The notes beneath the pieces are model-generated. The model searched no databases. It had not been told where the DNA came from and saw only the letters and a list, made by a program, of their open reading frames with translations. Of a stretch of DNA of 64,000 bases, positions 3,943 through 44,286 are shown piece by piece. This DNA is from Actinomycetes bacterium (lineage in GTDB: Bacteria > Actinomycetota > CALGFH01). Every line of letters begins with the position of its first letter. Position 1 is the first letter of the stretch. A program made the translations under genes and the position numbers. The stretch lies in the NCBI GenBank assembly GCA_035263405.1, contig DATFRI010000074.1, forward strand, positions 9,824 to 73,823. Reading direction: 5' to 3'.

Positions 3943-5219
3943 TGGCGGGCGGCGCGAGCAGGCCGGGGCCGGTCACCAGGGGGCTGCGCCTGCCCGCCCG
4001 GGGCCCGAAGATGTCGCTGTTCCAGCCCACCGAGCCAGCGTTCTACGGCTACCTGCTGCTCCTGGTGGTGACCGGGATCCTCACCGCGATGCAGCAGGGG
4101 GCGCTGCTGGTCAGCTCCCCGGCGAGCTGGCTGCTGTCCTGGCTGCTGCTGCTGTTCTACCTGCTGCCGATGTTCCTGGTCATCTACTTCCTCGACTTCT
4201 ACGAGCGGGAGCCGCTGTCGCTGGTGATCGGGGCGCTGCTGTGGGGCGCGGTGGCGGCCACGCTGCTGTCGGCGGTGGCGAACACGACCTGGGGCGCGGT
4301 GATCGCCAGGCTCGGCGGGCCCGACTTCGCCGCGAACTGGTCGGCGGCACTCACCGCCCCGCTCATCGAGGAGACCATGAAGGCGACCGGCGTGGTGCTG
4401 ATCTACCTGATCGCCCGCCGCGAGCTGAACGACATCATGGACGGCTTCGTGTACGGGGCGATGATCGGGCTGGGGTTCGCGGTCGTCGAGGACGTCTACT
4501 ACTTCGTCGCCGAGTTCGCCGGCGGCGTGGGCGGGGTGCTGGTGGGGTTCTTCGTCCGGGTGATCGCGGCCGGCCTGTACGGGCACGTGCTGTACACGGG
4601 GCTGGCGGGGATCGGGATCGCCTACTTCCTCACGCGCGCGAAGGAGGCCGGCCTCGGGCGCCGCCTGCTGGTGGCCGCCGGCCTGTGCCTCACGGCGGTG
4701 CTCGCGCACTTCCTGTGGAACTCCCCGGTGCTCAGCCAGCTCTTCCCGGGGCCACAGACGCCGCCGCTGGCGGCGCTGGTGCAGTTCCCGGTCGCGATGG
4801 CGGTCAAGGGCCTGCCGTTCCTGGTGTTCCTGGCGCTGATGCTGCGCCTGGCCCACCGGCGGGAGCTGTACTGGCTCAAGAAGAGCATCGAGACCGAGCT
4901 GGGGGGTCCCGGGCTGTACCCCGGCGAGCTGGAGGTGCTGGTCGACCCCGGGCGCCGGCGGGCCTCCCGCCGGCAGATGCGCGGCAGCCACGGGCCGGTC
5001 GCCGCCACGCTGCTCAAGCGCGTCCAGCGCGAGCAGATCAAGCTCGCGATGATCCGCACGCGGGTGGGCACGCAGGACCACCCCGACCTGGCCCGCCAGC
5101 GCGGGGTCATCCAGAGGCTGCGGGACCAGCTCGCCGTGGCCGTCTCCCCCCGCCCGCCGGTCTGGCCGGGCGCGCAGCAGCCGCCGTGGTGGCCGGGGGA
5201 CCAGCCGCCGCGCCGGTGA
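3942..5219 (+). CDS. PrsW-family intramembrane protease
   Basis: Polytopic membrane protein with the motifs IEETMK, FAVVEDVYYF and HFLWNSP. These are the EExxK / FxxxE / H motifs of the PrsW family. Its start is coupled to the upstream gene. Confidence 0.8.
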   Translation: MAGGASRPGPVTRGLRLPARGPKMSLFQPTEPAFYGYLLLLVVTGILTAMQQGALLVSSPASWLLSWLLLLFYLLPMFLVIYFLDFYEREPLSLVIGALLWGAVAATLLSAVANTTWGAVIARLGGPDFAANWSAALTAPLIEETMKATGVVLIYLIARRELNDIMDGFVYGAMIGLGFAVVEDVYYFVAEFAGGVGGVLVGFFVRVIAAGLYGHVLYTGLAGIGIAYFLTRAKEAGLGRRLLVAAGLCLTAVLAHFLWNSPVLSQLFPGPQTPPLAALVQFPVAMAVKGLPFLVFLALMLRLAHRRELYWLKKSIETELGGPGLYPGELEVLVDPGRRRASRRQMRGSHGPVAATLLKRVQREQIKLAMIRTRVGTQDHPDLARQRGVIQRLRDQLAVAVSPRPPVWPGAQQPPWWPGDQPPRR

Positions 5220-8933: not shown

Positions 8934-10181
8934 ATGAGACCCGAGCGCAACCACGAGGGGGGCGGCGAGCGGGCTGAGCTGGTCACCCTCGACGACCTCT
9001 TCGAGGCCCGCCAGCGCCTGCGCGCGGCGCGGGTGCTGCGCCCGACCCCGGTGGACCGCTCCGACAGCTTCTCCCGCCTGGCCGGCCGGACCGTCTGGCT
9101 CAAGCCCGAGCAGCAGCAGCGGACCGGCTCGTTCAAGATCCGCGGTGCCTACAACCACGTCTGCCGGCTGCCACCCGGCCAGGAGGTCGTGGCCGCGTCC
9201 GCGGGCAACCACGCCCAGGGGGTCGCGCTCGCCGCCGCCCTCACCGACCGCAAGGCGACCATCTACATGCCCGCACAGGCGCCCCTGCCCAAGGTCGAGG
9301 CGACCCGCGGCTACGGCGCGACCGTGCAGTCCCTGGGCGACAGCGTGGACGACTGCATCCAGACGGCGCGCGAGGACGCCGAGGACCGCGGCGCCGCGTT
9401 CGTCCCCCCCTTCGACGACCTGGACGTCATCGCCGGGCAGGGCACCGCCGGGCTGGAGCTGGTCGACGAGGTCCCCGACGCGCAGGTCGTGGCGGTCGCG
9501 GTGGGCGGCGGCGGCTGGATCTCCGGGATCGGCGGGGCATTCGCCCACCTGCGCCCGGAGACCAGGGTGATCGGGGTGGAGGCCGCCGGCGCGGACTCGA
9601 TGGTCGCCTCGCTGCGGGCCGGCCGGCCGGTGACGCTGCGGCGGATGCGGACCATGGCCGACGGGATCGCGGTCAAAGCGCCCTCGGAGCTGACCCTGGC
9701 GCACGTCCAGGCGTTCGTGGACGACGTGGTGACGGTCGGCGAGGAGGAGATCAGCCAGGCGCTGGTGCTGCTGCTGGAGCGCGCCAAGGCGGTCGTCGAG
9801 CCGAGCGGCGCCGCCGCGCTCGCGGCGGTCCTGGCCGGCAGGCTGCCCGGCTCCGGCCCGGTGGTCGCGGTCCTCGGCGGAGGCAACATCGACCCGCTGC
9901 TGCTCACCAAGGTGATCGACCACGGCCTGTCGGCGGCCGGCCGCTACCTCGCCGTGCGGGTGCTGCTGGACGACCAGCCGGGCAGCCTCGCACGGCTGAC
10001 CGGGCAGGTCGCCAGGCTGGGCCTCAACGTCCTGGCCGTCGAGCACCACCGCAGCGGGCTGGACCTGCCGATGGCCGCGGTCGAGGTGCTGCTCACCGTC
10101 GAGACGCGCAACGCGCTGCACTCCGACGAGATCCTCGAGGGCCTGCGCGCCGCGGGCTTCGACGTCGCGCTCGCGCGCTGA
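8934..10181 (+). CDS. ilvA: Threonine dehydratase (threonine ammonia-lyase), PLP-dependent with a C-terminal ACT-like regulatory domain
   Basis: Contains the PLP lysine motif SFKIRGA and the glycine loop GGGGWISG. The C-terminal ~90 aa form a regulatory domain. Confidence 0.9.
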   Translation: MRPERNHEGGGERAELVTLDDLFEARQRLRAARVLRPTPVDRSDSFSRLAGRTVWLKPEQQQRTGSFKIRGAYNHVCRLPPGQEVVAASAGNHAQGVALAAALTDRKATIYMPAQAPLPKVEATRGYGATVQSLGDSVDDCIQTAREDAEDRGAAFVPPFDDLDVIAGQGTAGLELVDEVPDAQVVAVAVGGGGWISGIGGAFAHLRPETRVIGVEAAGADSMVASLRAGRPVTLRRMRTMADGIAVKAPSELTLAHVQAFVDDVVTVGEEEISQALVLLLERAKAVVEPSGAAALAAVLAGRLPGSGPVVAVLGGGNIDPLLLTKVIDHGLSAAGRYLAVRVLLDDQPGSLARLTGQVARLGLNVLAVEHHRSGLDLPMAAVEVLLTVETRNALHSDEILEGLRAAGFDVALAR

Positions 10182-34069: not shown

Positions 34070-34290
34070 AGGGGTCCCGGCGCGCACCCGCCGGTGGGCG
34101 CGCCGACCTCGTGATCCTCTCGTTGCGGGGCCGTGACCCCACGCGGCCGGCCCGCTGCTACGGTGCTTCGCAGTGGCCACCTGGGGCAGGGCCTGCCGTA
34201 CCCCCGGCGACGGGCGTGCCCGCGGCACCGACCCTCGCCCCGATTCCTGCTTCGGGCAGCACCGCGCCCGGTCGTCGTAAGGAGTCCACG

Positions 34291-36150
34291 ATGCAGGGTG
34301 GTCACGCTGGTCCGGTCGTCCACGCCCCCGCCAGGGCGACACGTGTCGGGGCCGGACTGGCCAGGACCGTCCGGCTGCTGACCGCGGTGGTGCTGCTCGG
34401 CACGGCCCTGCTGATCGTCGCGCTGGTCGGCCAAGGCACCGCAGGCGCCAGGGGGCTGGTCCGGGCGCCGGACCAGGAGGCTCCGGGCAGCCTGCCGGGA
34501 CCACGACCGGTCACCGGTGACCCGGCCGGCACGGCGGCCCTGGAGCACGCCAGGGCGGACGCGGACACGCTGCTGCGCCGGATCCCACCCGACAGCGCCC
34601 GGGCCGGGGGCACCGCCGCCGCCACCAGCCCGCCGGCGCAGCCCGGCGCTCCCGGGGACCCGCGCAGCGGCAGCACGCTCGAGCCCGAGTCGTTGGGCCG
34701 GGCGCTGCCCTCCAAGCGGGTGCAGGTCGCCCGGGCGCCGGACGGCCAGGACGGGCAGGGCGAGGGCGTGGACAGCGACCTTCCACCCGAGAGCGTGCGG
34801 GTCGCGGCGGCGTCGGGTGCGGTCCCGTTCGTGGCGACCGCGCCGTACGTGACGATGGCGGCCGCGCGGAAGGGGCCTGGCCGCCAGCCGTCGCAGCCCG
34901 CGCCCACGCCCTCACCCAGCAGTCGCGCGAGGCCGGCCAAGGAGATGACCCCAGAGCAGCGCGAGGCCGAGGCCTCGCAGCTCGAAACCGACATGTACGA
35001 GGCCAAGCTTCGCCTGACGCTGATGGACCGGCTGCGCCCCCCGCCGGTCGACCCGCAGGCGACGCCGAAGGTTGCAGCCCAGCAGCGGCAGGAGCTGGAC
35101 GCCCACCATGCCGAGTGGAGACGGCTCGTCCGCGACCTGGAGGCGAAGCAGGAGCGCTACGGCGAGCTGAGGACCGAGACGCACTACCCGCCGGAGCTGG
35201 ACGCCATGACACCGGCCGAACTGCTCGAGCGAGACAGACTCCTGGATGCCGAGGTTCAGAAGAACGTCGCCGAGGGAGGAGCGGAGAGACGCCCGAGGTC
35301 CAACGACCCGGCGGAGGTCGAGCGCTGGGCCAGGCTCACCCTCGACCGGGAGGACTGGTACCCCAGGCTGCTCAGCGACGTCCGCGAGGCGATCGGGGCC
35401 AAGCTGGACGACCTGACGGCACGCGGCGTCGACACTCAGGAGGTCCGGCAGCTCCAGGCCACGTACGACAGGCTCGACCAGACCCCGGCCTACCCGCCGC
35501 GCCTGGCCCACGTCCCCTGGGTCGAGCAGGGACGACAGGCCAAGTCCCTCCAAGCTGCGATCGAAGCCAACGAGCAGCGGCTGGCCGCCCCGGAGTCCGA
35601 CGCGCAGCGTATCGAGATCCTCAAGCAGAACGCGGCGATGAAGCGGGAGCTGGGCTTCATCAAGAGGAGCCTGGACTCGGTCAAGGACGTGGGCACGCCG
35701 ACCGACAAGGGCGGGGAGCTGACGCCGCCGGACCTGGACACCGGCACCGACCCGTCGGCCACCAGGCTCGCCGGCGAGCCGGCCCCTGGTGCCCCGGTCG
35801 AGGCCGCTCAGGTGGACGCCTTGACGCCGCCGCCGGCACCTGTGCACGAGCTGGTCGAGGGCGACCCCTTGCCGCCGGGGACGCCCGTCGCGGGCCTGGT
35901 CGGCGGCCAGACCGGTACCGCCGGCCAGGGGCTGAACCCCGGCTCAGCGCCTGCTCCGGCTCCGGCGGTCCTGGCCACGGAGCCGTCGCCCGCACCGTCC
36001 CCGGCGGTCGTGGCGTCGGAGCCAGCGGTCGTCCTGTCACCGACGGAGGCTGGCGACGCCACCCTGTTCGACAACGACCCCACCGTCGACGGCGTGGGCG
36101 CCGGCACCTGGACCGACGACAGCTCCTTGGGCAGCACCCTCCTGAGCTGA
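34291..36150 (+). CDS. Family member 3. Signal-anchor membrane protein with a Pro-rich linker, a helical / coiled-coil ectodomain and a Pro/Ala-rich tail.
   Basis: SD AAGGAG before the ATG at 34291. N-module RATRVGAGLARTVRLLTAVVLLGTALLIVALVGQGTAGARG. The lower-GC core lies at about 34900-35700. Confidence 0.6.
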   Translation: MQGGHAGPVVHAPARATRVGAGLARTVRLLTAVVLLGTALLIVALVGQGTAGARGLVRAPDQEAPGSLPGPRPVTGDPAGTAALEHARADADTLLRRIPPDSARAGGTAAATSPPAQPGAPGDPRSGSTLEPESLGRALPSKRVQVARAPDGQDGQGEGVDSDLPPESVRVAAASGAVPFVATAPYVTMAAARKGPGRQPSQPAPTPSPSSRARPAKEMTPEQREAEASQLETDMYEAKLRLTLMDRLRPPPVDPQATPKVAAQQRQELDAHHAEWRRLVRDLEAKQERYGELRTETHYPPELDAMTPAELLERDRLLDAEVQKNVAEGGAERRPRSNDPAEVERWARLTLDREDWYPRLLSDVREAIGAKLDDLTARGVDTQEVRQLQATYDRLDQTPAYPPRLAHVPWVEQGRQAKSLQAAIEANEQRLAAPESDAQRIEILKQNAAMKRELGFIKRSLDSVKDVGTPTDKGGELTPPDLDTGTDPSATRLAGEPAPGAPVEAAQVDALTPPPAPVHELVEGDPLPPGTPVAGLVGGQTGTAGQGLNPGSAPAPAPAVLATEPSPAPSPAVVASEPAVVLSPTEAGDATLFDNDPTVDGVGAGTWTDDSSLGSTLLS

Positions 36151-36190: not shown

Positions 36191-36466
36191 TCAGCTCGTG
36201 CCGGACGGCGCGGGCGCCGCCGCGAGCGCCGCGACCGCGGAGGGTGCGGAGGCTGCGGAGGCCGCGGCGGGCGGGGCCGGCGCGGCCGGTTCGGGCAGGC
36301 TCGGCACCGGCGTCTCGTCGAGCAGCCGGTTGAGCATCGACAGCACCGACGCCACGCCCGCGAGCGCGGCCGCCTTGAGCGCCGGACCCGCCAGCGACAG
36401 GACCGGCGAGGCGAGCAGGACCGCGACGAACGTGTGCACGAACGTCCGCGCGGCCCGGATCGTCAT
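36191..36466 (-). CDS. Small membrane protein resembling r1t-type phage holin family (Phage_r1t_holin-like)
   Basis: MTIRAARTFVHTFVAVLLASPVLSLAGPALKAAALAGVASVLSMLNRLL recalls the conserved N-terminus ...ERA.KTFAQT..AVL of r1t holin-like proteins. It is followed by an Ala/Pro-rich tail. Confidence 0.45.
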   Translation of the reverse strand: MTIRAARTFVHTFVAVLLASPVLSLAGPALKAAALAGVASVLSMLNRLLDETPVPSLPEPAAPAPPAAASAASAPSAVAALAAAPAPSGTS

Positions 36467-36599
36467 CGACTTGAGCAGGTTGCTGGTACGCATGGCCGCC
36501 GCCTCCTCCTCGGGCCGGCGGCGCCCGGCCGCCGGCCACCGATGTCAGCGAGAGCGCAGCCGGGAACGCCTGATACCGCGGGGTTCTGAACTGTTCGCG

Positions 36600-38200
36600 G
36601 GGGTGTCGGTGTCCATCGCGTTCTGTCCGCATCTGTCAGTCGGGGAGCACTGCGGCCGGGTGCGCTGTCGGGAGCATCCGCCATGCTCTGGGGATGACCA
36701 TCGCCGCACCCACCGACGTCCCTGCCGCGCCCGCGCGCGAGCCGGCGCCGCTGGGCTGCGTGCAGGCCTACCGGTTCGCGCTGGACCCCACCCCGAGGCA
36801 GCAGCGGGCGCTGGCGTCCTCGGCTGGCGGCGCCAGGTTCTGTTTCAACTGGGGCCTGGAGCACGTCAAGCAGCTGCTGGACCGGCGTGCCGCTGGCGAG
36901 CCGGTCGAGGTCCCCTGGAGCCTGTACGCGCTGCGGCGGGCGTGGAATCAGGCCAAGGACGAGGTCGCGCCGTGGTGGCCGGAGAACAGCAAGGAGGCGT
37001 ACAACAGCGGCTTGGACGGCCTTGCCCGGGCGCTCAAGAACTTCTCCGACGGCCGCTCGGGCAAGCGCAAGGGCCCGCGGGTGGGGTTCCCGCGGTTCCG
37101 CAAGCGGGGCCGCACCAAAGCGGCGGTCCGGTTCACCACCGGGACGATCCGCGTGGAGGCCGACCGCAAGCATGTGACCCTGCCGCGGTTGGGCGCGCTC
37201 AGGACCCACGAGTCCACCCGCAAGCTCGCCCGGCGGCTGGAGGCTGGCAGCGCCCGCATCCTCAGCGCCACGGTCAGCCGCACGGGTGGCCGCTGGTTCG
37301 TCTCCTTCACCTGCCAGGTGACCCGCACGGTGCCCGCCCGGGCGGCACGGCCGCCGCGGGTGGTCGCCGCGGACGCCGGGGTCACGCAGCTGCTGACCCT
37401 GTCCACCGGCGAGCGTATTCCCAACCCCGCCGCGCTCCGCCACGCGCTGGTCAGGCTACGGCGGCTGAACCGGCAGCTCGCCCGGCGCAAGGGCCCACGC
37501 ACCCCTGCGGGCGGCTACCGCGAGCCATCCGCCAACTGGTTGGACGCCAAGGCCGAGCTGGCCCGGGCGCACGCGCGGGTGGCCAACCTGCGCCGTGACG
37601 CGTTGCACCAGGCGACCAGTCGGCTCGCGCGGGAGTATGACCTGGTCGTCGTCGAGGCCTTGCGAGTGGCCAATCTGCTGCGCAGGGCTCGCGGCAAGCG
37701 GGGGCTCAACCGGGCGCTCGCCGACGCGGCGCTGGCGGAGCTGCGCCGGCTGCTTGGCTACAAGTGCCCGTGGGCGGGGTCGGTGCTGCTGGAAGCCGAC
37801 CCGTTCTTTCCCTCCAGCAAGAGCTGCTCTGGTTGCGGGGTGGTCAAAGCCACGCTGCCCTTGACCGAGCGGGTGTTTCGCTGTGATGCGTGCGGTCTGG
37901 TCGTCGACCGGGACGTGAACGCCGCGTTGAACCTCGCCGCCCTCGCGAGCAGCCGCCTCGTCACCGTCATCGGTGACGCGGGGCAGAGGGCCGGCGCCGG
38001 GAGTGGCCCGGGACCGTCAACCGCCCGTGGAGGCCAGGTAAGACCCCGCGTCCGCGCGGGGCACCGGTCGGCGAAGCGGGAAGCCGGCACCGGCCTGAGC
38101 CTTCAGGCTGGGTGAGACCGGCACCGCCGGGTCGCAAGGCCCAGGCTGCCCGGACCGCGACGATCACAGATCGTCGTTGAAGTTCCGAGTAACGGTCGCG
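36600..38200 (+). mobile_element. tnpB-only IS200/IS605-family (IS1341-like) element. Boundaries are approximate. A 7-bp inverted repeat CGACGAT-N5-ATCGTCG sits at about 38155-38180 in the presumptive right end / omegaRNA region.
   Basis: TnpB gene is flanked by short non-coding stretches and inserted between convergent host genes (holin-like gene and S8 peptidase gene). I did not see terminal inverted repeats of the DDE type, which is consistent with IS605-family elements. Confidence 0.6.
36694..38115 (+). CDS. tnpB: IS200/IS605-family TnpB (OrfB_IS605 RuvC-like nuclease with C-terminal Zn-ribbon)
   Basis: 473 aa with an N-terminal HTH/OrfB region, RuvC-like motifs and the Zn-ribbon CSGCG...CDACG. 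No tnpA is adjacent. Confidence 0.9.
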   Translation: MTIAAPTDVPAAPAREPAPLGCVQAYRFALDPTPRQQRALASSAGGARFCFNWGLEHVKQLLDRRAAGEPVEVPWSLYALRRAWNQAKDEVAPWWPENSKEAYNSGLDGLARALKNFSDGRSGKRKGPRVGFPRFRKRGRTKAAVRFTTGTIRVEADRKHVTLPRLGALRTHESTRKLARRLEAGSARILSATVSRTGGRWFVSFTCQVTRTVPARAARPPRVVAADAGVTQLLTLSTGERIPNPAALRHALVRLRRLNRQLARRKGPRTPAGGYREPSANWLDAKAELARAHARVANLRRDALHQATSRLAREYDLVVVEALRVANLLRRARGKRGLNRALADAALAELRRLLGYKCPWAGSVLLEADPFFPSSKSCSGCGVVKATLPLTERVFRCDACGLVVDRDVNAALNLAALASSRLVTVIGDAGQRAGAGSGPGPSTARGGQVRPRVRAGHRSAKREAGTGLSLQAG

Positions 38201-38202
38201 GG

Positions 38203-39465
38203 TCAGCCGTACGACGCGGGGTTGACCACCGCACCCAGGCCGCAGCCGCGCTCCTGCAGGCGCGGCGCGGCGGGCGCGCCGACCAGGCGGAAGGCGGCCT
38301 CGGGCGCGTCCATGCCCGTGCCGGCCAGGGCCGCGATCGCCCCGGCCACCCGTGGCGCCGCGAACGACGTGCCGCTCCAGGAGGCCCACAGCCGGAACTG
38401 CTGGGTCCCGGACGCGGGCTGCCCCAGGCAGTGCGGGCCCGGTCCCGGCTCGGGGTCGAAGTCGGCGTCGAAGAACGTGCTGTGCACGTCCACGCCCGGC
38501 GCCCAGGCGTCCACCCAGGTCCCGAAGTTGCTGAAGCACGCGCGCCGGCCGTCCGGGCCGAGCGCCCCCACGCCGAGCACGCGCTTGAACGCCGCCGGGT
38601 AGGTGCGCCGGTCCAGGCCGTCGTTGCCGGCCGCGGCGACCACGACCAGGTGGGGGTTGCGCCGGAAGCACTCGGTGAGCGCGGCGGCGGTCAGCGGCGG
38701 CTCCTGGTCCCCGTGGGTGTAGGCGCCGAGCGACAGGTTGGCGACCTGGACCTCGGGCGGCAGCTCGGCGAGCGCGCCGGCCAGCGCGGCGTCGTCGCAC
38801 ACGCCGTCGCCGCCGAACACCTTGCGGGCGACCACCTCGGCCCCGGGCGCGTGCTGGAGGATCACGCCGGCGACGAAGGTGCCGTGGCCGGCGTAGTGGG
38901 CCAGCTGGTTGTTGGCGCGCAGGACCGGCGCCTCGGTGTCGGCCTGGGGGTTGGGGCGCAGCGTCCGGGCGCGGGGGCCGAGCCAGGGATGGCCCTCCAT
39001 GAGGCCGCTGTCGAACACCGCCACCCGCACGCCGGCGCCGGGCTGCTCGCTCATCTGGCTGGACAGCGCCCCGAGCGGGCCGGCGCCACGGGGGGACGTG
39101 GCCGGGAACGGCAGGGGGTGGGTGCCGCCGAACAGCACGTGGTTGGGGTGGACGCCGACCGGCCGCTCGCCGAGCTCCAGGTCGAACTCGCGCCCGCGGA
39201 TGAGCTGCACGATCTCGGGCACGGTCGGCTCCTCGGCGTCCAGCAGCAGCCGCACGAAGCCGCCGGCCTCGAGCCGCTCCTCGGCCCACTGCGCCAGGCC
39301 GAGGCGGCGCAGCTCGCCGCGCACGCGCTCCAGGTCGCGCGGGCCGGTGAGGAGCTGGCGCGGCCGGTACAGGTAGCCGCCGCCGAGGTGGTGCGGCGCC
39401 TGCTCGACGTCGGCCGGCAACGACACCTCGTGCGGCTCGCCGTGGCCCTGCGGCTCGTTCTCCAT
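38203..39465 (-). CDS. S8-family subtilisin-like serine peptidase with no signal peptide
   Basis: Catalytic triad contexts VAVFDSG (Asp), HGTFVAG (His) and GTSFAAP (Ser). SD GAGGAGG before the ATG at 39465. The N-terminal 140 aa are hydrophilic and lack a secretion signal. Confidence 0.85.
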   Translation of the reverse strand: MENEPQGHGEPHEVSLPADVEQAPHHLGGGYLYRPRQLLTGPRDLERVRGELRRLGLAQWAEERLEAGGFVRLLLDAEEPTVPEIVQLIRGREFDLELGERPVGVHPNHVLFGGTHPLPFPATSPRGAGPLGALSSQMSEQPGAGVRVAVFDSGLMEGHPWLGPRARTLRPNPQADTEAPVLRANNQLAHYAGHGTFVAGVILQHAPGAEVVARKVFGGDGVCDDAALAGALAELPPEVQVANLSLGAYTHGDQEPPLTAAALTECFRRNPHLVVVAAAGNDGLDRRTYPAAFKRVLGVGALGPDGRRACFSNFGTWVDAWAPGVDVHSTFFDADFDPEPGPGPHCLGQPASGTQQFRLWASWSGTSFAAPRVAGAIAALAGTGMDAPEAAFRLVGAPAAPRLQERGCGLGAVVNPASYG

Positions 39466-39628
39466 CCCGGCCTCCTCGCTTTCACGGTGGGCTGCGCCCG
39501 AATTTGTCTCCTTCGTACAATCTCGGACCCGAGCAGTCCAGATCGCGTCGTCCGGGTGGGATGATCTCCTGAGCCGCGCCGAGCCGTCCCGACGCCTGCC
39601 AGCTCCCGTTCCCGTGGGGAGGACCGCC
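39466..39628. promoter_or_regulatory. Divergent promoter region between the S8 peptidase and CHAT genes. It contains an unusually AT-rich segment (CCCGAATTTGTCTCCTTCGTACAATCTCGG).
   Basis: Local GC drop in otherwise >70% GC DNA, at the position expected for shared divergent promoters. Confidence 0.3.
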
Positions 39629-42307
39629 GTGCCCGGATCCGCCGCCAGCATCGCCGCGCGGGCGATGGAGCTGTCCGGGGTCGACCCGGGACGGGCGCGC
39701 GTGACCGCCGCGGAGGCGCTGCGCGAGGCGCGGGCCGAGCACGACGCCGCCGCCGCCTGCATGGCCGAGCGGGCGTTGGGGCTGGCGGCCAGGCAGGCCT
39801 TCGAGATCGACAGCGCGCTCGGGCACCTGCGCCGCGCGGTCAGGATCGCCGAGCGCGGCGGCCTCGTCCTGCAGGCGGCGCAGGCCAGGGTGCAGCTGTC
39901 GGGCATCCTCGCCGTCCGGGGCGAGTTCCCCGCCGCCCTGCGGGAGGCCGACCGGGCCAGCCCCACCCTGCGCGGCGGCGACCTGGCCCTGCTCCAGGCG
40001 CAGCGCGCGTTCATCCTGCAGATGCAGGGCCGCCTGGCCGACGCGCTCGAGGGCTACCGGCTCGTCCTGCCCGCCTTCCGCCGCTCGGGGGACACGTTCC
40101 ACGAGGCCAAGGCGCTGCACAACCGGGGGCTGCTGCACTACCACCTCGGCGCCCTCGGGGCCGCCGAGGTGGACCTGGCCCGCGCCGCGGAGCTGTGGAC
40201 CGGCCTCGGCAACCAGCGGGAGACCGCCGACGCGGACCAGAACCTCGGCTGCGTCCTGGTCCGCCAGGGCCGGCTGCCCGACGCCCTGGCCCGGTTCGAC
40301 CGCGCCGACGCGTACTTCGCCGCCAAGGGCATCCTCGACCCCGTGGGCCTGCGCGACCGCTGCGAGGCGCTGCTCGCCGCGCGCCTGGTCGCCGAGGCCC
40401 GCCGGACCGCCGAGCAGGCCGTCGCCGGGCTGGCCGCGCGGGGGCTGGCGCCGTTCCTCGCCGAGGCGCAGCTGCTGCTGTCGGAGGCGGCGCTGCTGGA
40501 CGGCGACGTGGCCGCCGCACGCGACGCGGCCACGGCCGCCCGCAAGGGGTTCGCCGGCCAGCGCCGGGCGCGCTTCCTCGCGCTGGCCCGCTCAGCCCTG
40601 CTGCGGGTGGCCTGGGCGAGCGGGGAGCGCTCGCCGCGGCTGCTCGCCGACGCCCGCCGGACCGCGCGGGCGCTGGCCGTGGCGGGCTGGACGGTGCCCG
40701 CGCTGGACGCGCGGCTGGTCGCCGCCCAGCTCGCGCTGGACCTGGGGCGCGTCAGGACCGCCCGCGCCGAGCTGGCCCAGGCGACCGCGGCGCGCCAGCG
40801 CGGCCCGGTGGAGCTGCGCTCCCGCGCGTGGCACGCGGAGGCGCTGCTGCGGCTGGCGGGCGGCAACCGCGCCGGCGCCGAGTCGGCCCTGCGCGCCGGT
40901 GTCCGCATGCTCGGCCGCTACCGCGCCGCCCTGGGCGCCACCGAGCTGCGCGCCAGCTCCTCGATGCACGCGGCCGGCCTGGCGCGCCTGGGGCTGCGGC
41001 TGGCGCTCGCCGACGGCGACGCGCGCCGGGTGCTGCGCTGGGCGGAGCGCTGGCGCGCCAGCAGCCTGCAGCCGCACCCGGTGCGCCCGCCCGGGGACCG
41101 GGAGCTGGCCGGCGACCTGGCGCAGCTGCGCCGGGTCGCCGGCGAGCTGGGCGAGGCGGTCCAGGCCGGCCGCGACACCGCGCGGCTGCGCGCCCGGCAG
41201 GCGGCGTTGGAGGAGGCCGTGCGCCGCCGCGCGCGCCAGGCACCCGCCGCCGGCCTCTACCAGCCCGGCGTCGAGCCCGCCCTCGGGTCCCTGCGGGCGG
41301 CGCTCGGCGAGCGCGCGCTGGTGGAGCTGGTCGAGCTGGACGGCCAGCTCCACGCCGTGGTCGTCACGGCCGGGCGCACCCGGCTGCGCCCCCTCGGCCC
41401 CGTCGGCCAGGTCGCCGGCGAGCTGGACGGGCTGCGCTTCGCGCTGCGGCGCATCGCGCACGGCCACGGCGGCCCGTCCTCGCTCGACGCCGCGGCGCAG
41501 GCGCTCGCGGCCGCCGCCCGCGGCCTGGACGACCTGCTGCTCGACCCGCTTCGGCCGGACCTCGGCGACCGGCCGCTGGTGGTGGTCCCCACCGGCGCGC
41601 TGCACGCGCTCCCCTGGCCCGCGCTGCCGAGCTGCGCCGGCCGCCCGGTCGCCGTGGCGCCCTCCGCCGCGCTGTGGTGCGCGGCGACCTCCCGCCCCCA
41701 CCCGCCCGAGCCCGTTCCCGGGGCCCCCGCCGGGACGCGGCCCGCGGCCGCGCCGGACCGCACCGTCCTGGTCGCCGGGCCGGGCCTGCCCGAGGCCGCC
41801 GCCGAGGTCGCCGACCTGCACGACCGCTACCCCGGCGCCCGCCGCCTGACCGGCGAGGCCGCCACCGTCCACGCGGTCGCCGGCGCGCTCGACGGCGTCG
41901 CCCTCGCCCACGTCGCCGCGCACGGCCGCTTCCGCACCGACAACCCGCTGTTCTCGGCGCTGGAGCTGGCGGACGGGCCGCTCACCGTGTACGACCTGGA
42001 GGCCCTGCGCGCGGCGCCGCTGCGGCTGGTCCTGGCCGCCTGCGACGCGGGGCTGTCGGAGGTCCGCCCGGGCGACGAGCTGATGGGGCTGGCCGCCGCC
42101 CTGTTCACGCTGGGCATGCGCACGATGATCGCCTCGGTCCTGCCGGTCCCGGACACCGCCACCCGTCCGCTGATGCTCGCGCTGCACGACCGGCTGCGCG
42201 CCGGGCTGGAGCCCGCCGACGCGCTCGCGGGCGTCCAGGCCGGCGCGGCGGCCAGCGCCAGCTCGTGGGCCGCGTCGGTGAGCTTCGTCTGCTTCGGAGC
42301 CGGCTGA
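39629..42307 (+). CDS. TPR-like repeat / CHAT (caspase-like) domain protein
   Basis: The N-terminal ~550 aa are Ala/Leu/Arg-rich helical repeats. The C-terminal CHAT domain carries the His-Cys dyad contexts HVAAHGRF and LVLAACDAG. SD GGGGAGGA before the GTG at 39629 (ORF track start 39614). Confidence 0.8.
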   Translation: MPGSAASIAARAMELSGVDPGRARVTAAEALREARAEHDAAAACMAERALGLAARQAFEIDSALGHLRRAVRIAERGGLVLQAAQARVQLSGILAVRGEFPAALREADRASPTLRGGDLALLQAQRAFILQMQGRLADALEGYRLVLPAFRRSGDTFHEAKALHNRGLLHYHLGALGAAEVDLARAAELWTGLGNQRETADADQNLGCVLVRQGRLPDALARFDRADAYFAAKGILDPVGLRDRCEALLAARLVAEARRTAEQAVAGLAARGLAPFLAEAQLLLSEAALLDGDVAAARDAATAARKGFAGQRRARFLALARSALLRVAWASGERSPRLLADARRTARALAVAGWTVPALDARLVAAQLALDLGRVRTARAELAQATAARQRGPVELRSRAWHAEALLRLAGGNRAGAESALRAGVRMLGRYRAALGATELRASSSMHAAGLARLGLRLALADGDARRVLRWAERWRASSLQPHPVRPPGDRELAGDLAQLRRVAGELGEAVQAGRDTARLRARQAALEEAVRRRARQAPAAGLYQPGVEPALGSLRAALGERALVELVELDGQLHAVVVTAGRTRLRPLGPVGQVAGELDGLRFALRRIAHGHGGPSSLDAAAQALAAAARGLDDLLLDPLRPDLGDRPLVVVPTGALHALPWPALPSCAGRPVAVAPSAALWCAATSRPHPPEPVPGAPAGTRPAAAPDRTVLVAGPGLPEAAAEVADLHDRYPGARRLTGEAATVHAVAGALDGVALAHVAAHGRFRTDNPLFSALELADGPLTVYDLEALRAAPLRLVLAACDAGLSEVRPGDELMGLAAALFTLGMRTMIASVLPVPDTATRPLMLALHDRLRAGLEPADALAGVQAGAAASASSWAASVSFVCFGAG

Positions 42308-42541
42308 CGCGCGCGGCCGGGCGTCCGCAGGCCGCGGTATCAGCGGGGGCCCGCGCCTGCTCCCGCAGACGAGGTCGAGCGGCGGCGGAGGGCATCGATG
42401 CGGACGGGAGCGTGCGCGCCGGCGTGGCGGAGGCCACGCCCGCCGGCCCCGGCCACGCCTCGCATGGGGGGTGCCATCGCGCCGGGCCGCTGTGCTACGT
42501 TCTCGCAGTTCGAGCGTACTGGCACGACCGAGAGGAACCGG

Positions 42542-43108
42542 TTGGTGGATCGGGACGTCGCCGTCCTGCTCGGCGACGCCGCCAACGGCGACCACCGCGC
42601 CTGGGAGTCGCTGGTGGACCGCCTCAGTCCCCTGCTCTGGTCCGTCGCGCGGGGCTACCGGCTCAGCCAGCCCGACGCCGAGGACGTCATCCACACCGCC
42701 TGGATGCGCCTGCTGGAGCGGCTCGACCGGATCGAGGACCCCGCCCGCGTGGGCTCCTGGCTGGCGACCACCGTCCGCCACGAGTGCCTGCGCCTCCTGC
42801 GGCGGCAGGGGCGGATCGTGCTGACCGGCGAGGCGGAGCTGGACAGCGGCGCCAGCGACCAGCCGACCCCCGAGGCCGCGCTGCTGCGGGCCGAGCGCAG
42901 CACCCTGCTCGCGCACGCGTTCGCCCAGCTCCCGCAACGCTGCCAGCAGCTGCTGCGCATGCTGGCCGTGCGCGCGTCCTACGAGGAGGTCGCGGGCGCC
43001 CTCGACATGCCGGTCGGCGCGATCGGCCCGACCAGGGGCCGCTGCCTGCAGCGGCTCCGCCAGCGGCTGGCGGCCGGCGGGATCAGCGTCAGCAGGCTGG
43101 CCGACTGA
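42542..43108 (+). CDS. ECF (sigma-70 family) RNA polymerase sigma factor
   Basis: Sigma-70 region 2 (LWSVARGYRLSQPDAEDVIHTAWMRL) and region 4 (ASYEEVAGALDMPVGAIGPTRGRCLQRLR). The start is a TTG/GTG at 42542/42545 after GAGAGGAA. The upstream part of the ORF track entry is unlikely to be coding. Confidence 0.85.
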   Translation: MVDRDVAVLLGDAANGDHRAWESLVDRLSPLLWSVARGYRLSQPDAEDVIHTAWMRLLERLDRIEDPARVGSWLATTVRHECLRLLRRQGRIVLTGEAELDSGASDQPTPEAALLRAERSTLLAHAFAQLPQRCQQLLRMLAVRASYEEVAGALDMPVGAIGPTRGRCLQRLRQRLAAGGISVSRLAD

Positions 43109-43135: not shown

Positions 43136-43597
43136 ATGCGCGACTCACCCGAGGACGAGCGGCTCCTCGACGAGCTGCGCCGGGTGCTCGACCGCACCGA
43201 CCCGATGCCCGAGCAGGTCACCCGCGCCGCCAGGGAGAGCTACACCTGGCGCACGGTCGACGCCGAGCTGGCCGCGCTGGCCTGGGACTCCGACGCCGAC
43301 CGGCCGCTGGCGTCGGTGCGCGGCACCGGGGACGCGCGGCTGCTCACCTTCGACGCCGAGGGCCTGCGGTTCGACCTGGAGATCAGCGGCAGCGGCCGCG
43401 ACCGGCGCCTGGTCGGCCAGCTCGTCCCGGCGCAGCCCGGCGAGGTGGAGCTGCGGCAGCGGTCGGGCCTGGCGCGCACGGTCCAGGCCGACGACGCCGG
43501 CCGGTTCGCCATCGCCGACCTCGAGCCCGGCCCGCTCAGCCTGTGCTGCCGGCGTCCCGGGGCGGCGGTGGTCGCCACGGAGTGGTTCCTGCCCTGA
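43136..43597 (+). CDS. Hypothetical 153-aa protein in the ECF sigma operon. A possible soluble anti-sigma or regulatory partner.
   Basis: The SD GGAAGGAGG precedes the ATG. It begins 27 nt after the sigma-factor stop. The C-terminal half is beta-rich. There is no TM segment and no zinc-finger anti-sigma motif. Confidence 0.55.
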   Translation: MRDSPEDERLLDELRRVLDRTDPMPEQVTRAARESYTWRTVDAELAALAWDSDADRPLASVRGTGDARLLTFDAEGLRFDLEISGSGRDRRLVGQLVPAQPGEVELRQRSGLARTVQADDAGRFAIADLEPGPLSLCCRRPGAAVVATEWFLP

Positions 43598-43611: not shown

Positions 43612-44286
43612 ATGCCCAGGACAGGCTTCACCCCGCAGCAGCACGGCTTCCACTTCGACAACGACTTCGTCAACAAGGTGGCCACGCTGCCGGGCTTCGG
43701 CCAGATCGAGACCCGCGGCCGCTGCGGCGGGATGGCCTACGCCGCGCTCGACTTCTACCACGCGGGCGTCCCGGTCCCCGCGGACACCACCCTGCCGCCC
43801 GACGGCAGCCCGCTCTCCGACTTCATCTCCCGGCGGCTGCTGGACAGCTTCCTGGTGCCGAGCGCCATCCAGTTCGTCTCCTGGACGCTCCACTCCGACC
43901 ACAGCACCTGGTTCTTCAAGGGCGTCACCCGCTGGACCCGGGAGGACCAGCTCCCCCGCCTGCGTGGCTTCCTCGACCGCGGCCAGCCGGTCCCGCTCGG
44001 CCTCGTCGGCGCCCGCGACCTGCGCGACGTCGGCGACGGCAACCACCAGGTCGTCGCCTACGGCTACGACCTGGACCAGGGCACCCGGACCACCCGCGTC
44101 CAGATCTACGACAACAACACCCACGACCAGGAGGTCGTGCTCACCGCCGACCCGTCCAGCCCCCACATCCACGCGTCCAACCGGCGCACGCCCTGGCGCG
44201 GGCTGTTCGTCCAGAGCTACACCCGGGTCGCCCCGCCGCCCGCGCTGCTCGGCGCCGGCGCGCCCGCGCGACCGCCCGACCGGTGA
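43612..44286 (+). CDS. Papain-like cysteine peptidase-fold protein (C39-like / Peptidase_C39_2-like Cys...His arrangement)
   Basis: SD GAGGAGG before the ATG, 14 nt after the previous stop. Candidate catalytic Cys in GRCGGMAYAALDFYHAG and His in GNHQVVAYGYD...VQIYDNN, which resembles the C39 'CG..a..m' and 'HfvVl.gyd...v.i.DP' blocks. Confidence 0.5.
   Translation: MPRTGFTPQQHGFHFDNDFVNKVATLPGFGQIETRGRCGGMAYAALDFYHAGVPVPADTTLPPDGSPLSDFISRRLLDSFLVPSAIQFVSWTLHSDHSTWFFKGVTRWTREDQLPRLRGFLDRGQPVPLGLVGARDLRDVGDGNHQVVAYGYDLDQGTRTTRVQIYDNNTHDQEVVLTADPSSPHIHASNRRTPWRGLFVQSYTRVAPPPALLGAGAPARPPDR

Follow-up and report, generated by a model that had tools for sequence, protein, structure and literature searches.

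Bacterial systems in which a protease controls the release of a sigma factor have been studied experimentally in the TPR-CHAT/Csx30/CASP-sigma, CalpL/CalpT/CalpS and SAVED-CHAT>PCaspase>PCc-sigma systems (PMC10028731). In the type III-E craspase, Cas7-11 with the TPR-CHAT protein Csx29 cleaves Csx30, which releases the extracytoplasmic function (ECF) sigma factor CASP-sigma/RpoE (PMC10028731). In the type III-B system of Haliangium, which follows the order SAVED-CHAT > PCaspase > PCc-sigma/PCi, the CHAT initiator activates a second, broader protease (bioRxiv 10.1101/2023.06.23.546230). The DdvA-DdvS complex of Myxococcus xanthus (8ROT) consists of a TPR-CHAT anti-sigma factor bound to an ECF sigma factor, and the authors propose that the CHAT domain cleaves a flexible linker and so releases the sigma factor (PMC11506125). 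Sigma release gated by CHAT-type proteases has so far been described in a few phyla, in systems linked to clustered regularly interspaced short palindromic repeats (CRISPR) or to cyclic-oligonucleotide-based antiphage signalling systems (CBASS), that is, in craspase and SAVED-CHAT/PCaspase, with DdvA as a proposal and the Lon-type CalpL alongside. Here, we analyzed a stretch of 64,000 nucleotides from an Actinomycetes bacterium (contig DATFRI010000074.1, assembly GCA_035263405.1, positions 9,824 to 73,823 of the forward strand), which we refer to as the window and in which all positions are numbered. The evidence strongly supports that the window holds a copy of a four-gene module, self-contained and conserved among Actinomycetota, which encodes a TPR-CHAT protein, an S8 subtilase, an ECF sigma factor and a small protein that we call p153.

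The S8 gene (38203-39465, minus strand, 420 aa) and the TPR-CHAT gene (39629-42307, plus strand, 892 aa) are divergently oriented and separated by an intergenic region of 163 bp (39466-39628). The sigma gene (42398-43108, plus strand, 236 aa) is located directly downstream of the TPR-CHAT gene and is followed by the gene for p153 (43136-43597, plus strand). An earlier note on this DNA, made from the sequence alone, had already described the divergent protease pair and the ECF sigma gene beside it, and both are present as it reported; p153, the fourth conserved member, was absent from that note.

A scan with the S8 alignment of one genome per species yielded 80 loci, in which partner genes were identified by tblastn with the window proteins at distances of up to 6 kb from the S8 relative. 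Sequence of at least 6 kb on both sides of the S8 relative was available for 62 of the 80, hereafter full-flank loci. The loci come from Actinomadura, Nonomuraea, Kribbella, Micromonospora, Actinoplanes, Saccharopolyspora, Lentzea, Cellulomonas, Planobispora and Dactylosporangium, and from many metagenome-assembled genomes of Acidimicrobiia, Solirubrobacterales and other Actinomycetota. A TPR-CHAT gene was found in 74/80 loci (60/62 with full flanks), an ECF sigma gene in 67/80 (55/62) and p153 in 58/80 (48/62), and all four genes were present in 55/80 loci (48/62). The S8 and CHAT-TPR genes thus co-occur far beyond chance, and the ECF sigma gene belongs to their conserved neighborhood, two points for which the earlier note had proposed a survey. 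Its suggestion of a dedicated, sigma-linked module rather than a housekeeping function is likewise upheld by the synteny of the three genes across the Actinomycetota.

Gene order and orientation vary among 22 arrangements, of which the most common are S8>sigma>p153>CHAT (18 loci) and CHAT< >S8>sigma>p153 (15 loci), while the layout of the window, p153<sigma<CHAT< >S8, was observed in 5 loci. The divergent pairing of S8 and CHAT therefore describes the window and is not a general rule. Because membership is kept throughout the phylum while the gene order is shuffled, the synteny provides strong evidence for a functional coupling of the module genes, and chance adjacency is excluded. The CHAT gene is the most tightly linked partner of S8, even where the sigma gene is absent. 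All-against-all clustering of the open reading frames (ORFs) across the loci revealed no fifth conserved family common to more than 16 loci. The full cassette was also recovered in the reverse direction in a search from p153, which identified a Joint Genome Institute (JGI) metagenome contig with the order S8>sigma>p153>CHAT and a locus in Pseudonocardia humida (L088), in which sigma-p153 is flanked by two S8/CHAT pairs. Two such pairs within about 10 kb, sometimes with one common sigma-p153 pair, are found in six loci (L017, L039, L043, L075, L076, L088) and represent local duplications of the cassette.

A few S8 relatives that have no CHAT neighbor (L004, L016, L025) adjoin genes for class III nucleotide cyclases, and in L004 (8001-11916) the adjoining gene encodes a Guanylate_cyc-AAA_16 protein and the next one a TPR protein. 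Such cyclase/TPR genes may be an alternative partner for this S8 clade. As a general link of the module the class III cyclase was rejected, since it was encountered only in these three CHAT-less loci and in L001/L002.

The GC content of the window is about 75%, and the mechanically generated list of ORFs is crowded with antisense frames, so real genes were separated from artefacts by the GC content at the three codon positions. The minus-strand ORF of 603 aa at 38203-40014 has a coding pattern, with low GC at position 2 and about 100% GC at position 3, only from the ATG at 39465 (MENEPQ...), and the part upstream of this codon is the antisense of the CHAT gene. Both the 603-aa version of the S8 ORF and the open frames of 897-977 aa that overlap with it at 39377-40053 were rejected on account of antisense-type codon GC in the overlapping parts. 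The resulting S8 gene is supported by GC at the third codon position (GC3), its start codon, Pfam, AlphaFold2 (AF2) and Foldseek. The TPR-CHAT gene most likely starts at the GTG at 39629, which is preceded by a GGGAGG ribosome-binding site 6-7 nt upstream and is the start in the public gene call; alternative starts are the GTG at 39614 and the ATG at 39665.

The C-terminal CHAT domain (PF12770, 121.5 bits against a cutoff of 24, E 6e-35) covers aa 629-876 (about 41513-42256) and is preceded by TPR-like repeats at roughly aa 40-620 (Pfam TPR_12, E 2e-9). The caspase-like dyad motifs HVAAHGRF and AACDAG, which the earlier note had picked out, were identified as LAHVAAHGRF with H765 (41921-41923) and LAACDAG with C805 (42041-42043). 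Substitution of these residues would, according to that note, have refuted its reading; they are conserved in at least 95% of 68 family members and are invariant in an alignment of 19. All of the 19 family members scanned match CHAT, and their other Pfam matches are to TPR families only, with no NTPase, SAVED or anti-sigma domain among them. By hydropathy, no N-terminal signal or transmembrane segment is present in the family, and hydrophobic stretches are only internal, within or just before the CHAT domain. No specific family was assigned to the protein in PADLOC or NCBIfam.

In a search of the CHAT family profile against all PDB sequences, the closest solved CHAT protein, generic TPR proteins aside, was DdvA (8ROT/8RW5, E 7e-9), with the Csx29 entries of craspase behind it (E of about 5e-5 with the family profile and about 0.9 with the single sequence). 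The window module and DdvA-DdvS share a TPR-CHAT protein that has the canonical His/Cys dyad and is tied to an ECF sigma factor. However, DdvA is one transmembrane polypeptide composed of a zinc anti-sigma domain, a transmembrane helix and a periplasmic TPR-CHAT part, whereas the TPR-CHAT protein of the window is a separate, predicted soluble protein with neither transmembrane helix nor zinc anti-sigma domain, and the candidate anti-sigma factor is another protein of 153 aa. The window module also includes the S8 protease, has no CBASS or CRISPR regulon nearby and belongs to the Actinomycetota rather than the Myxococcota. An identification of the TPR-CHAT protein as a transmembrane anti-sigma factor of the DdvA type was rejected, as only TPR and CHAT were matched in Pfam and no N-terminal transmembrane segment or signal was detected.

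The likeness to craspase is that a soluble cytoplasmic TPR-CHAT protein is encoded together with an ECF-type sigma factor and a sigma-binding substrate, and that the sigma factor is released by site-specific cleavage; for the window module, both the sigma binding and the cleavage are only proposed. Unlike craspase, the module has no Cas7-11/crRNA (CRISPR RNA) sensor and no homolog of Csx30/Csx31, its CHAT domain is distant, and a pro-subtilisin is added. Identity with Csx29 was also rejected, since no Cas or Csx gene was found within 10 kb on either side of the S8 gene or among the recurrent families of the 80 loci.

The S8 protein matches Peptidase_S8 (PF00082) over aa 143-380 with 99 bits against a cutoff of 21.8 (E 3e-28). 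In agreement with the earlier note, the Asp/His/Ser triad is intact: the catalytic residues are D152 (39010-39012), H194 (38884-38886) and S367 (38365-38367), to which the oxyanion residue N281 (38623-38625) can be added, and all four are invariant in 26/26 homologs. These homologs have 38-60% identity in an alignment that spans the full length of the protein, including the N-terminal approximately 140 residues. From the conserved triad and dyad, both the S8 and the CHAT proteins are predicted to be active proteases. An assignment of the S8 protein as a mycosin of type VII secretion was rejected, as it scored 88 bits against the equivalog cutoff of 278.75 for TIGR03921 and no ESX genes are located nearby.

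The N-terminal extension of about 140 aa, which had been noted as hydrophilic, is indeed so, and structure prediction now identifies it as a subtilisin prodomain. The AF2 model, which is based on the alignment of 26 homologs, has a mean predicted local distance difference test score (pLDDT) of 91 and a predicted template modeling score (pTM) of 0.92, and it places a beta-alpha-beta-beta-alpha-beta unit at residues 32-112 ahead of the catalytic domain (strands at 32-40, 60-64, 71-75 and 105-112, helices at 42-54 and 82-90). The protein is thus divided into a prodomain at roughly aa 30-112 (39130-39378), a linker at aa 113-146 and a catalytic domain at aa 143-380 (38326-39039). The best Foldseek match in the PDB was the unautoprocessed pro-subtilisin E (3WHI, E 8e-19, 422 columns), and whole-length matches were also obtained to pro-Tk-subtilisin, ProN-Tk-SP, fervidolysin and PCSK9, with the best matches aligned over 400-470 columns. 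The Pfam sequence model for I9 gave no match to the S8 protein, despite the I9-type fold. On the basis of the model, we read the extension as a classical prodomain of the subtilisin type and therefore predict the S8 protein to be a zymogen that lacks a signal peptide.

Neither a hydrophobic stretch nor a signal peptide was found at the N-terminus of the S8 protein, and the same applies to nearly all relatives examined. The earlier view of an intracellular protease consequently stands for the protein of the window but fails for the family as a whole, since two orthologs from Micromonosporaceae, in a Micromonospora sp. (L029, about 9773-10000, SRRRVLALSALAVAAPF...) and an Actinoplanes sp. (L017, about 4716-4990, TRRGLLRWSAAAAAAAALPAWA), have N-termini that resemble twin-arginine signals. 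Their CHAT partners, unlike the S8 proteins, have no such signal. These N-termini would imply that S8 is exported in some lineages. A further two S8 proteins, both distant (L082, L083), begin with signals of the Sec type.

Like the classical pro-subtilisins (3WHI, pro-Tk-subtilisin, PCSK9), the S8 protein consists of an I9-type prodomain followed by a D/H/S catalytic domain and gives a fold match over its whole length, but the classical enzymes are secreted with signal peptides, whereas the S8 protein of the window and most of its family have none and occur in a regulatory gene context. The Haliangium cascade likewise combines two proteases, a sigma factor and a small partner in one set of genes. 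It differs in that its sensor is a cA3-binding (cyclic triadenylate-binding) SAVED domain rather than TPRs and its second protease is a caspase-like C14 enzyme rather than an S8 zymogen; it is also CRISPR/CBASS-linked, rare and myxobacterial, and a cascade is only proposed for the window module. No Cas, SAVED or cyclic-oligoadenylate (cOA) component was found, and the module was assigned neither to these systems nor to CalpL/CalpT/CalpS. What sets it apart is that it has no sensor for nucleic acids or nucleotides, has an S8 pro-enzyme for its second protease, includes a new family of small partner proteins and is distributed across the Actinomycetota.

The sigma protein starts at the ATG at 42398, with a GGAGG ribosome-binding site upstream and a conserved core from near aa 55. 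It scored 88.8 bits against the TIGR02937 cutoff of 42.9, and it matches Sigma70_r2 (E 1e-15) and, weakly, region 4 models. With sigma2 and sigma4 regions and a score above the family cutoff, the sequence qualifies as an ECF (group 4) sigma factor. The p153 gene is always located directly downstream of the sigma gene, and in 24 of the 51 loci with p153 behind sigma the two reading frames overlap by 4 nt at the sigma stop and the p153 start. The two genes are accordingly taken to be co-transcribed and often translationally coupled. The AF2 model of p153 (pLDDT 85) contains helices at aa 5-20 and 26-54, a disordered linker at aa 55-63 (pLDDT <50) that includes the invariant R62, and a confident seven-stranded beta-sandwich at aa 68-139, for which only generic Ig/FN3 sandwiches were retrieved with Foldseek. 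Apart from a sub-threshold match to CarboxypepD_reg in 22/34 members, p153 was not assigned to any family in Pfam, NCBIfam, PHROG or PADLOC, and 93/93 of its close homologs are annotated as hypothetical. A p153 profile identified 742 sequences at E<=1e-30 and 2773 at E<=1e-10 among 1.84 billion cluster representatives; nearly all of the best 150 of these matches are 140-210 aa long and aligned over almost the entire profile. Because of its coupling to the sigma gene and because a helical hairpin, a linker and a sandwich fit the profile of such a protein, we consider p153 a candidate soluble anti-sigma factor, whose exposed linker could be the target of a protease.

A search for the canonical ECF promoter AAC-N15-18-CGTC upstream of S8, CHAT and sigma gave no enrichment relative to a reverse-complement control, and a blind count of 5-mer/4-mer dyads gave nothing. 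A different motif, TGTATCA-N16-CTC, surfaced only through k-mer enrichment in the true intergenic regions. The heptamer TGTATCA was observed 7 times in the CHAT/S8 intergenic regions against 0.3 expected, and it recurs upstream of sigma. Alignment of the sites gave the bipartite pattern (A/G)TGTATCA-N16(17)-CTC(T/C)(G/T), which as a regular expression matches 77 times across the 80 loci, compared with about 36 times in block-shuffled sequence. Of these 77, 39 share the strand of a module gene and precede it by at most 450 nt, a compartment that represents a few per cent of the searched sequence; they are divided among sigma (21), S8 (12), p153 (6) and CHAT (0), and the other 38 occur at the background rate. 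A scan with a position weight matrix (PWM) gave 82 matches against 13-20 in shuffles, including 24 for sigma, 12 for S8, 5 for p153 and 1 for CHAT. Among five loci outside the training set of the PWM, three (L002, L003, L088) carry high-scoring sites at a distance of 68-120 nt ahead of S8, one (L087) has a site 286 nt ahead of the leading gene in an S8>sigma>p153>CHAT operon, and one (L004) has none. In the window, the site GGTATCA-N16-CTCCC (42337-42363, plus strand) falls into the gap that separates the CHAT and sigma genes, and it is kept in an 81% identical relative (L091). With its fixed spacing of 16-17 nt and its position ahead of the sigma gene, the motif resembles an autoregulated ECF promoter, and we treat it as a candidate for one.

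By analogy with the CRISPR-linked protease/sigma switches, we tentatively favor the reading that the cassette is a protease-gated ECF switch of the same kind that stands alone, a reading that we hold to be plausible though somewhat short of probable. From the gene content, predicted structures and motif positions we infer binding partners, cleavage partners, a signal and an output as follows. The p153 protein would act as a soluble anti-sigma factor that holds the sigma factor inactive through its N-terminal helices. The TPR-CHAT protein, which in the divergent layouts would have a promoter of its own that is independent of the motif, would be both sensor and initiator. A cytoplasmic cue perceived via the TPR array would activate the His/Cys site, and the CHAT domain would then cut p153 in the exposed linker near the invariant Arg62. 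The freed sigma factor would transcribe its own operon, and in many genomes also S8, from the TGTATCA-N16-CTC promoters. The S8 protein would accumulate as a zymogen inhibited by its prodomain, and removal of the prodomain would turn it into a second-tier protease. A protease cascade, as suggested in the earlier note, would be plausible on this scheme.

Several observations weigh against this switch. The motif was detected in only 36/80 loci and might instead represent an operator. The PWM scan found no site upstream of the S8 gene of the window itself, where the intergenic region holds only a degenerate copy (TTGTACGA...). In the relative L089 (about 1640-1700, corresponding to 39480-39530 of the window), the S8/CHAT intergenic region contains two GGTATCA boxes in a tandem duplication of AATTCGGTATCAG; by this comparison, the window has lost the duplication and with it the -35-like boxes upstream of S8. 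In five full-flank loci, S8 and CHAT are found with no sigma or p153 gene nearby, so the protease pair can exist without a local switch. No known anti-sigma domain was identified in p153 by Pfam, NCBIfam, a PDB profile search or fold. Finally, the combination of a Tat-like S8 protein with a signal-less CHAT protein in the two Micromonosporaceae is awkward for an obligatory cytoplasmic cascade.

Some of these observations also count for the main rival explanation, which we consider rather unlikely: the sigma factor would control a protease regulon with no cascade, in that sigma and p153 answer a stress via an unrelated input and S8 (with CHAT, where co-transcribed) is an output for protein turnover (bulk or targeted), development or nutrient scavenging, while the proteases regulate neither sigma nor each other. 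The motif often precedes S8, as it would a regulon member, but in the divergent layouts it is almost never found ahead of CHAT (0-1 sites versus 12 for S8). The Tat-like signal in the two Micromonosporaceae would fit an output enzyme, and yet a cytoplasmic subtilisin that is locked by its prodomain needs an activating step. Also, while p153 has no detectable anti-sigma domain, the characterized TPR-CHAT proteins are specific regulatory proteases, the closest relative of known structure, DdvA, belongs to the anti-sigma factors, and it is CHAT that stays with S8 most tightly, even in loci without sigma.

The protease-gated switch could be extended to a stand-alone initiator/executioner cascade. 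Here, the TPR-CHAT protein would sense an intracellular danger or a developmental cue without a CRISPR, CBASS or NTPase sensor and would cleave p153, as a new class of soluble anti-sigma factors, and/or the prodomain of the pro-subtilisin; the ECF sigma factor would amplify the response, and the subtilisin would bring about growth arrest or a regulated death of the cell, for instance in abortive infection or in developmental lysis in filamentous Actinomycetota. This extended scheme is speculative, and we regard it as doubtful.

An anti-phage or abortive-infection system, in which infection activates the TPR-CHAT protein, both proteases are effectors of death or dormancy and the sigma factor provides an accessory transcriptional response, seems unlikely. 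The resemblance to the defense-linked protease/sigma systems craspase, SAVED-CHAT/PCaspase, CalpL and DdvA argues for it, although no CRISPR, CBASS, SAVED or STAND NTPase sensor is present in the module. The module is patchy, shuffled and often duplicated, as in the six loci with two S8/CHAT pairs, and it has variable flanks, in the window with an adjoining IS605 TnpB gene; its other neighbors in the window are, however, ordinary metabolic and transport genes. There is a weak match to the PADLOC 'subtilase' model (47 bits, E 5e-13), but no system membership was found in PADLOC-DB v2, the matches to IetS and BovA are marginal, and sigma and p153 have none. Such a role in defense or cell death is compatible with the protease-gated switch and would be an overlay on it, not an alternative to it.

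A reversed order, in which S8 would exert the regulation by degrading p153 or processing CHAT and the TPR-CHAT protein would be an effector or scaffold, is very unlikely: the S8-CHAT linkage is silent on direction, subtilisin-like site-1 proteases act in other sigma pathways, and the p153 sandwich has a very weak fold echo of the Bacillus subtilis intracellular subtilisin inhibitor Ipi (3isy, probability 0.41), but that match is not significant, and an inhibited zymogen under a candidate sigma promoter would more naturally act downstream or in feedback than as a trigger.

Full-text literature searches for CHAT, S8 and ECF in combination revealed no account of the cassette, with the supplementary context tables of the ECF groups, which may list it, outside the search; the main text of the ECF reclassification paper does not mention CHAT. 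The cassette suggests that the logic of protease-gated sigma release operates as an autonomous four-gene unit that is widespread in the Actinomycetota, and it pairs a caspase-like enzyme with a cytoplasmic subtilisin zymogen and an uncharacterized family of candidate anti-sigma factors, of which hundreds to thousands of distinct variants exist. The hypothesis is directly testable, as all four proteins are small and predicted to be soluble, the catalytic residues are known, a candidate cleavage linker and a candidate promoter have been defined, and the cassette is present in genera that can be cultivated, among them Actinomadura, Nonomuraea, Kribbella, Micromonospora, Saccharopolyspora and Cellulomonas.

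The immediate surroundings of the module in the window are not conserved. In the 81%-identical relative (loci L089 and L091), the four module genes have 80-86% nucleotide identity and both flanks differ. The 4.1-kb segment 34063-38200 separates S8 from the formamidase gene; L089 has 38 bp in its place, and the segment is therefore probably a recent insertion. It contains an ORF of 679 aa (34111-36150) with no Pfam match, a holin-like ORF and, downstream of S8, a gene for an IS605-type TnpB (36694-38115, identified by Pfam) with no TnpA. The transposable element, which the earlier note had mentioned beside the protease pair, is not part of the module, since this segment is missing from the relative and TnpB has no match in the 80 loci.

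On the other side, the segment 43601-44644 is replaced by a GSDH/PKD gene in the relative. In the window it includes the gene for p224 (43612-44286, plus strand), which follows p153 after a gap of 14 nt, has a GAGGAGG ribosome-binding site and encodes a papain-like Cys...His pattern (GRCGGMAYAALDFY ... NHQVVAYGYD). Some homologs of p224 match Peptidase_C39_2 (PF13529), others are fused to lectin or peptidoglycan-binding domains, and no specific family was assigned to p224 itself in PADLOC or NCBIfam. By its sequence, p224 would be a third peptidase-like gene in the operon, an accessory gene specific to the window and not conserved with the module. Together with TnpB and the holin-like ORF, it was rejected as a module member, as all three are absent from the 80 loci and from the relative.

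The holin-like ORF (36191-36493, minus strand) encodes a membrane protein of 100 aa with a GC3 of 0.94, a match to PHROG 443 'holin' (E 1.2e-7) and a weak Pfam match to Phage_r1t_holin. Upstream of its ATG, starting at a distance of 83 nt, lies a perfect match to the module motif, GGTATCA-N16-CTCTCG (36550-36576, minus strand). As the ORF is absent from the relative and from the 80 loci, its link to the sigma factor may be coincidental. A different and larger CHAT protein of 1210 aa is encoded in L091 (7548-11237) at a distance of 5 kb from the module, by a gene that is absent from the window and has the module motif GGTATCA-N17-CTCCTCC 57 nt ahead of it.

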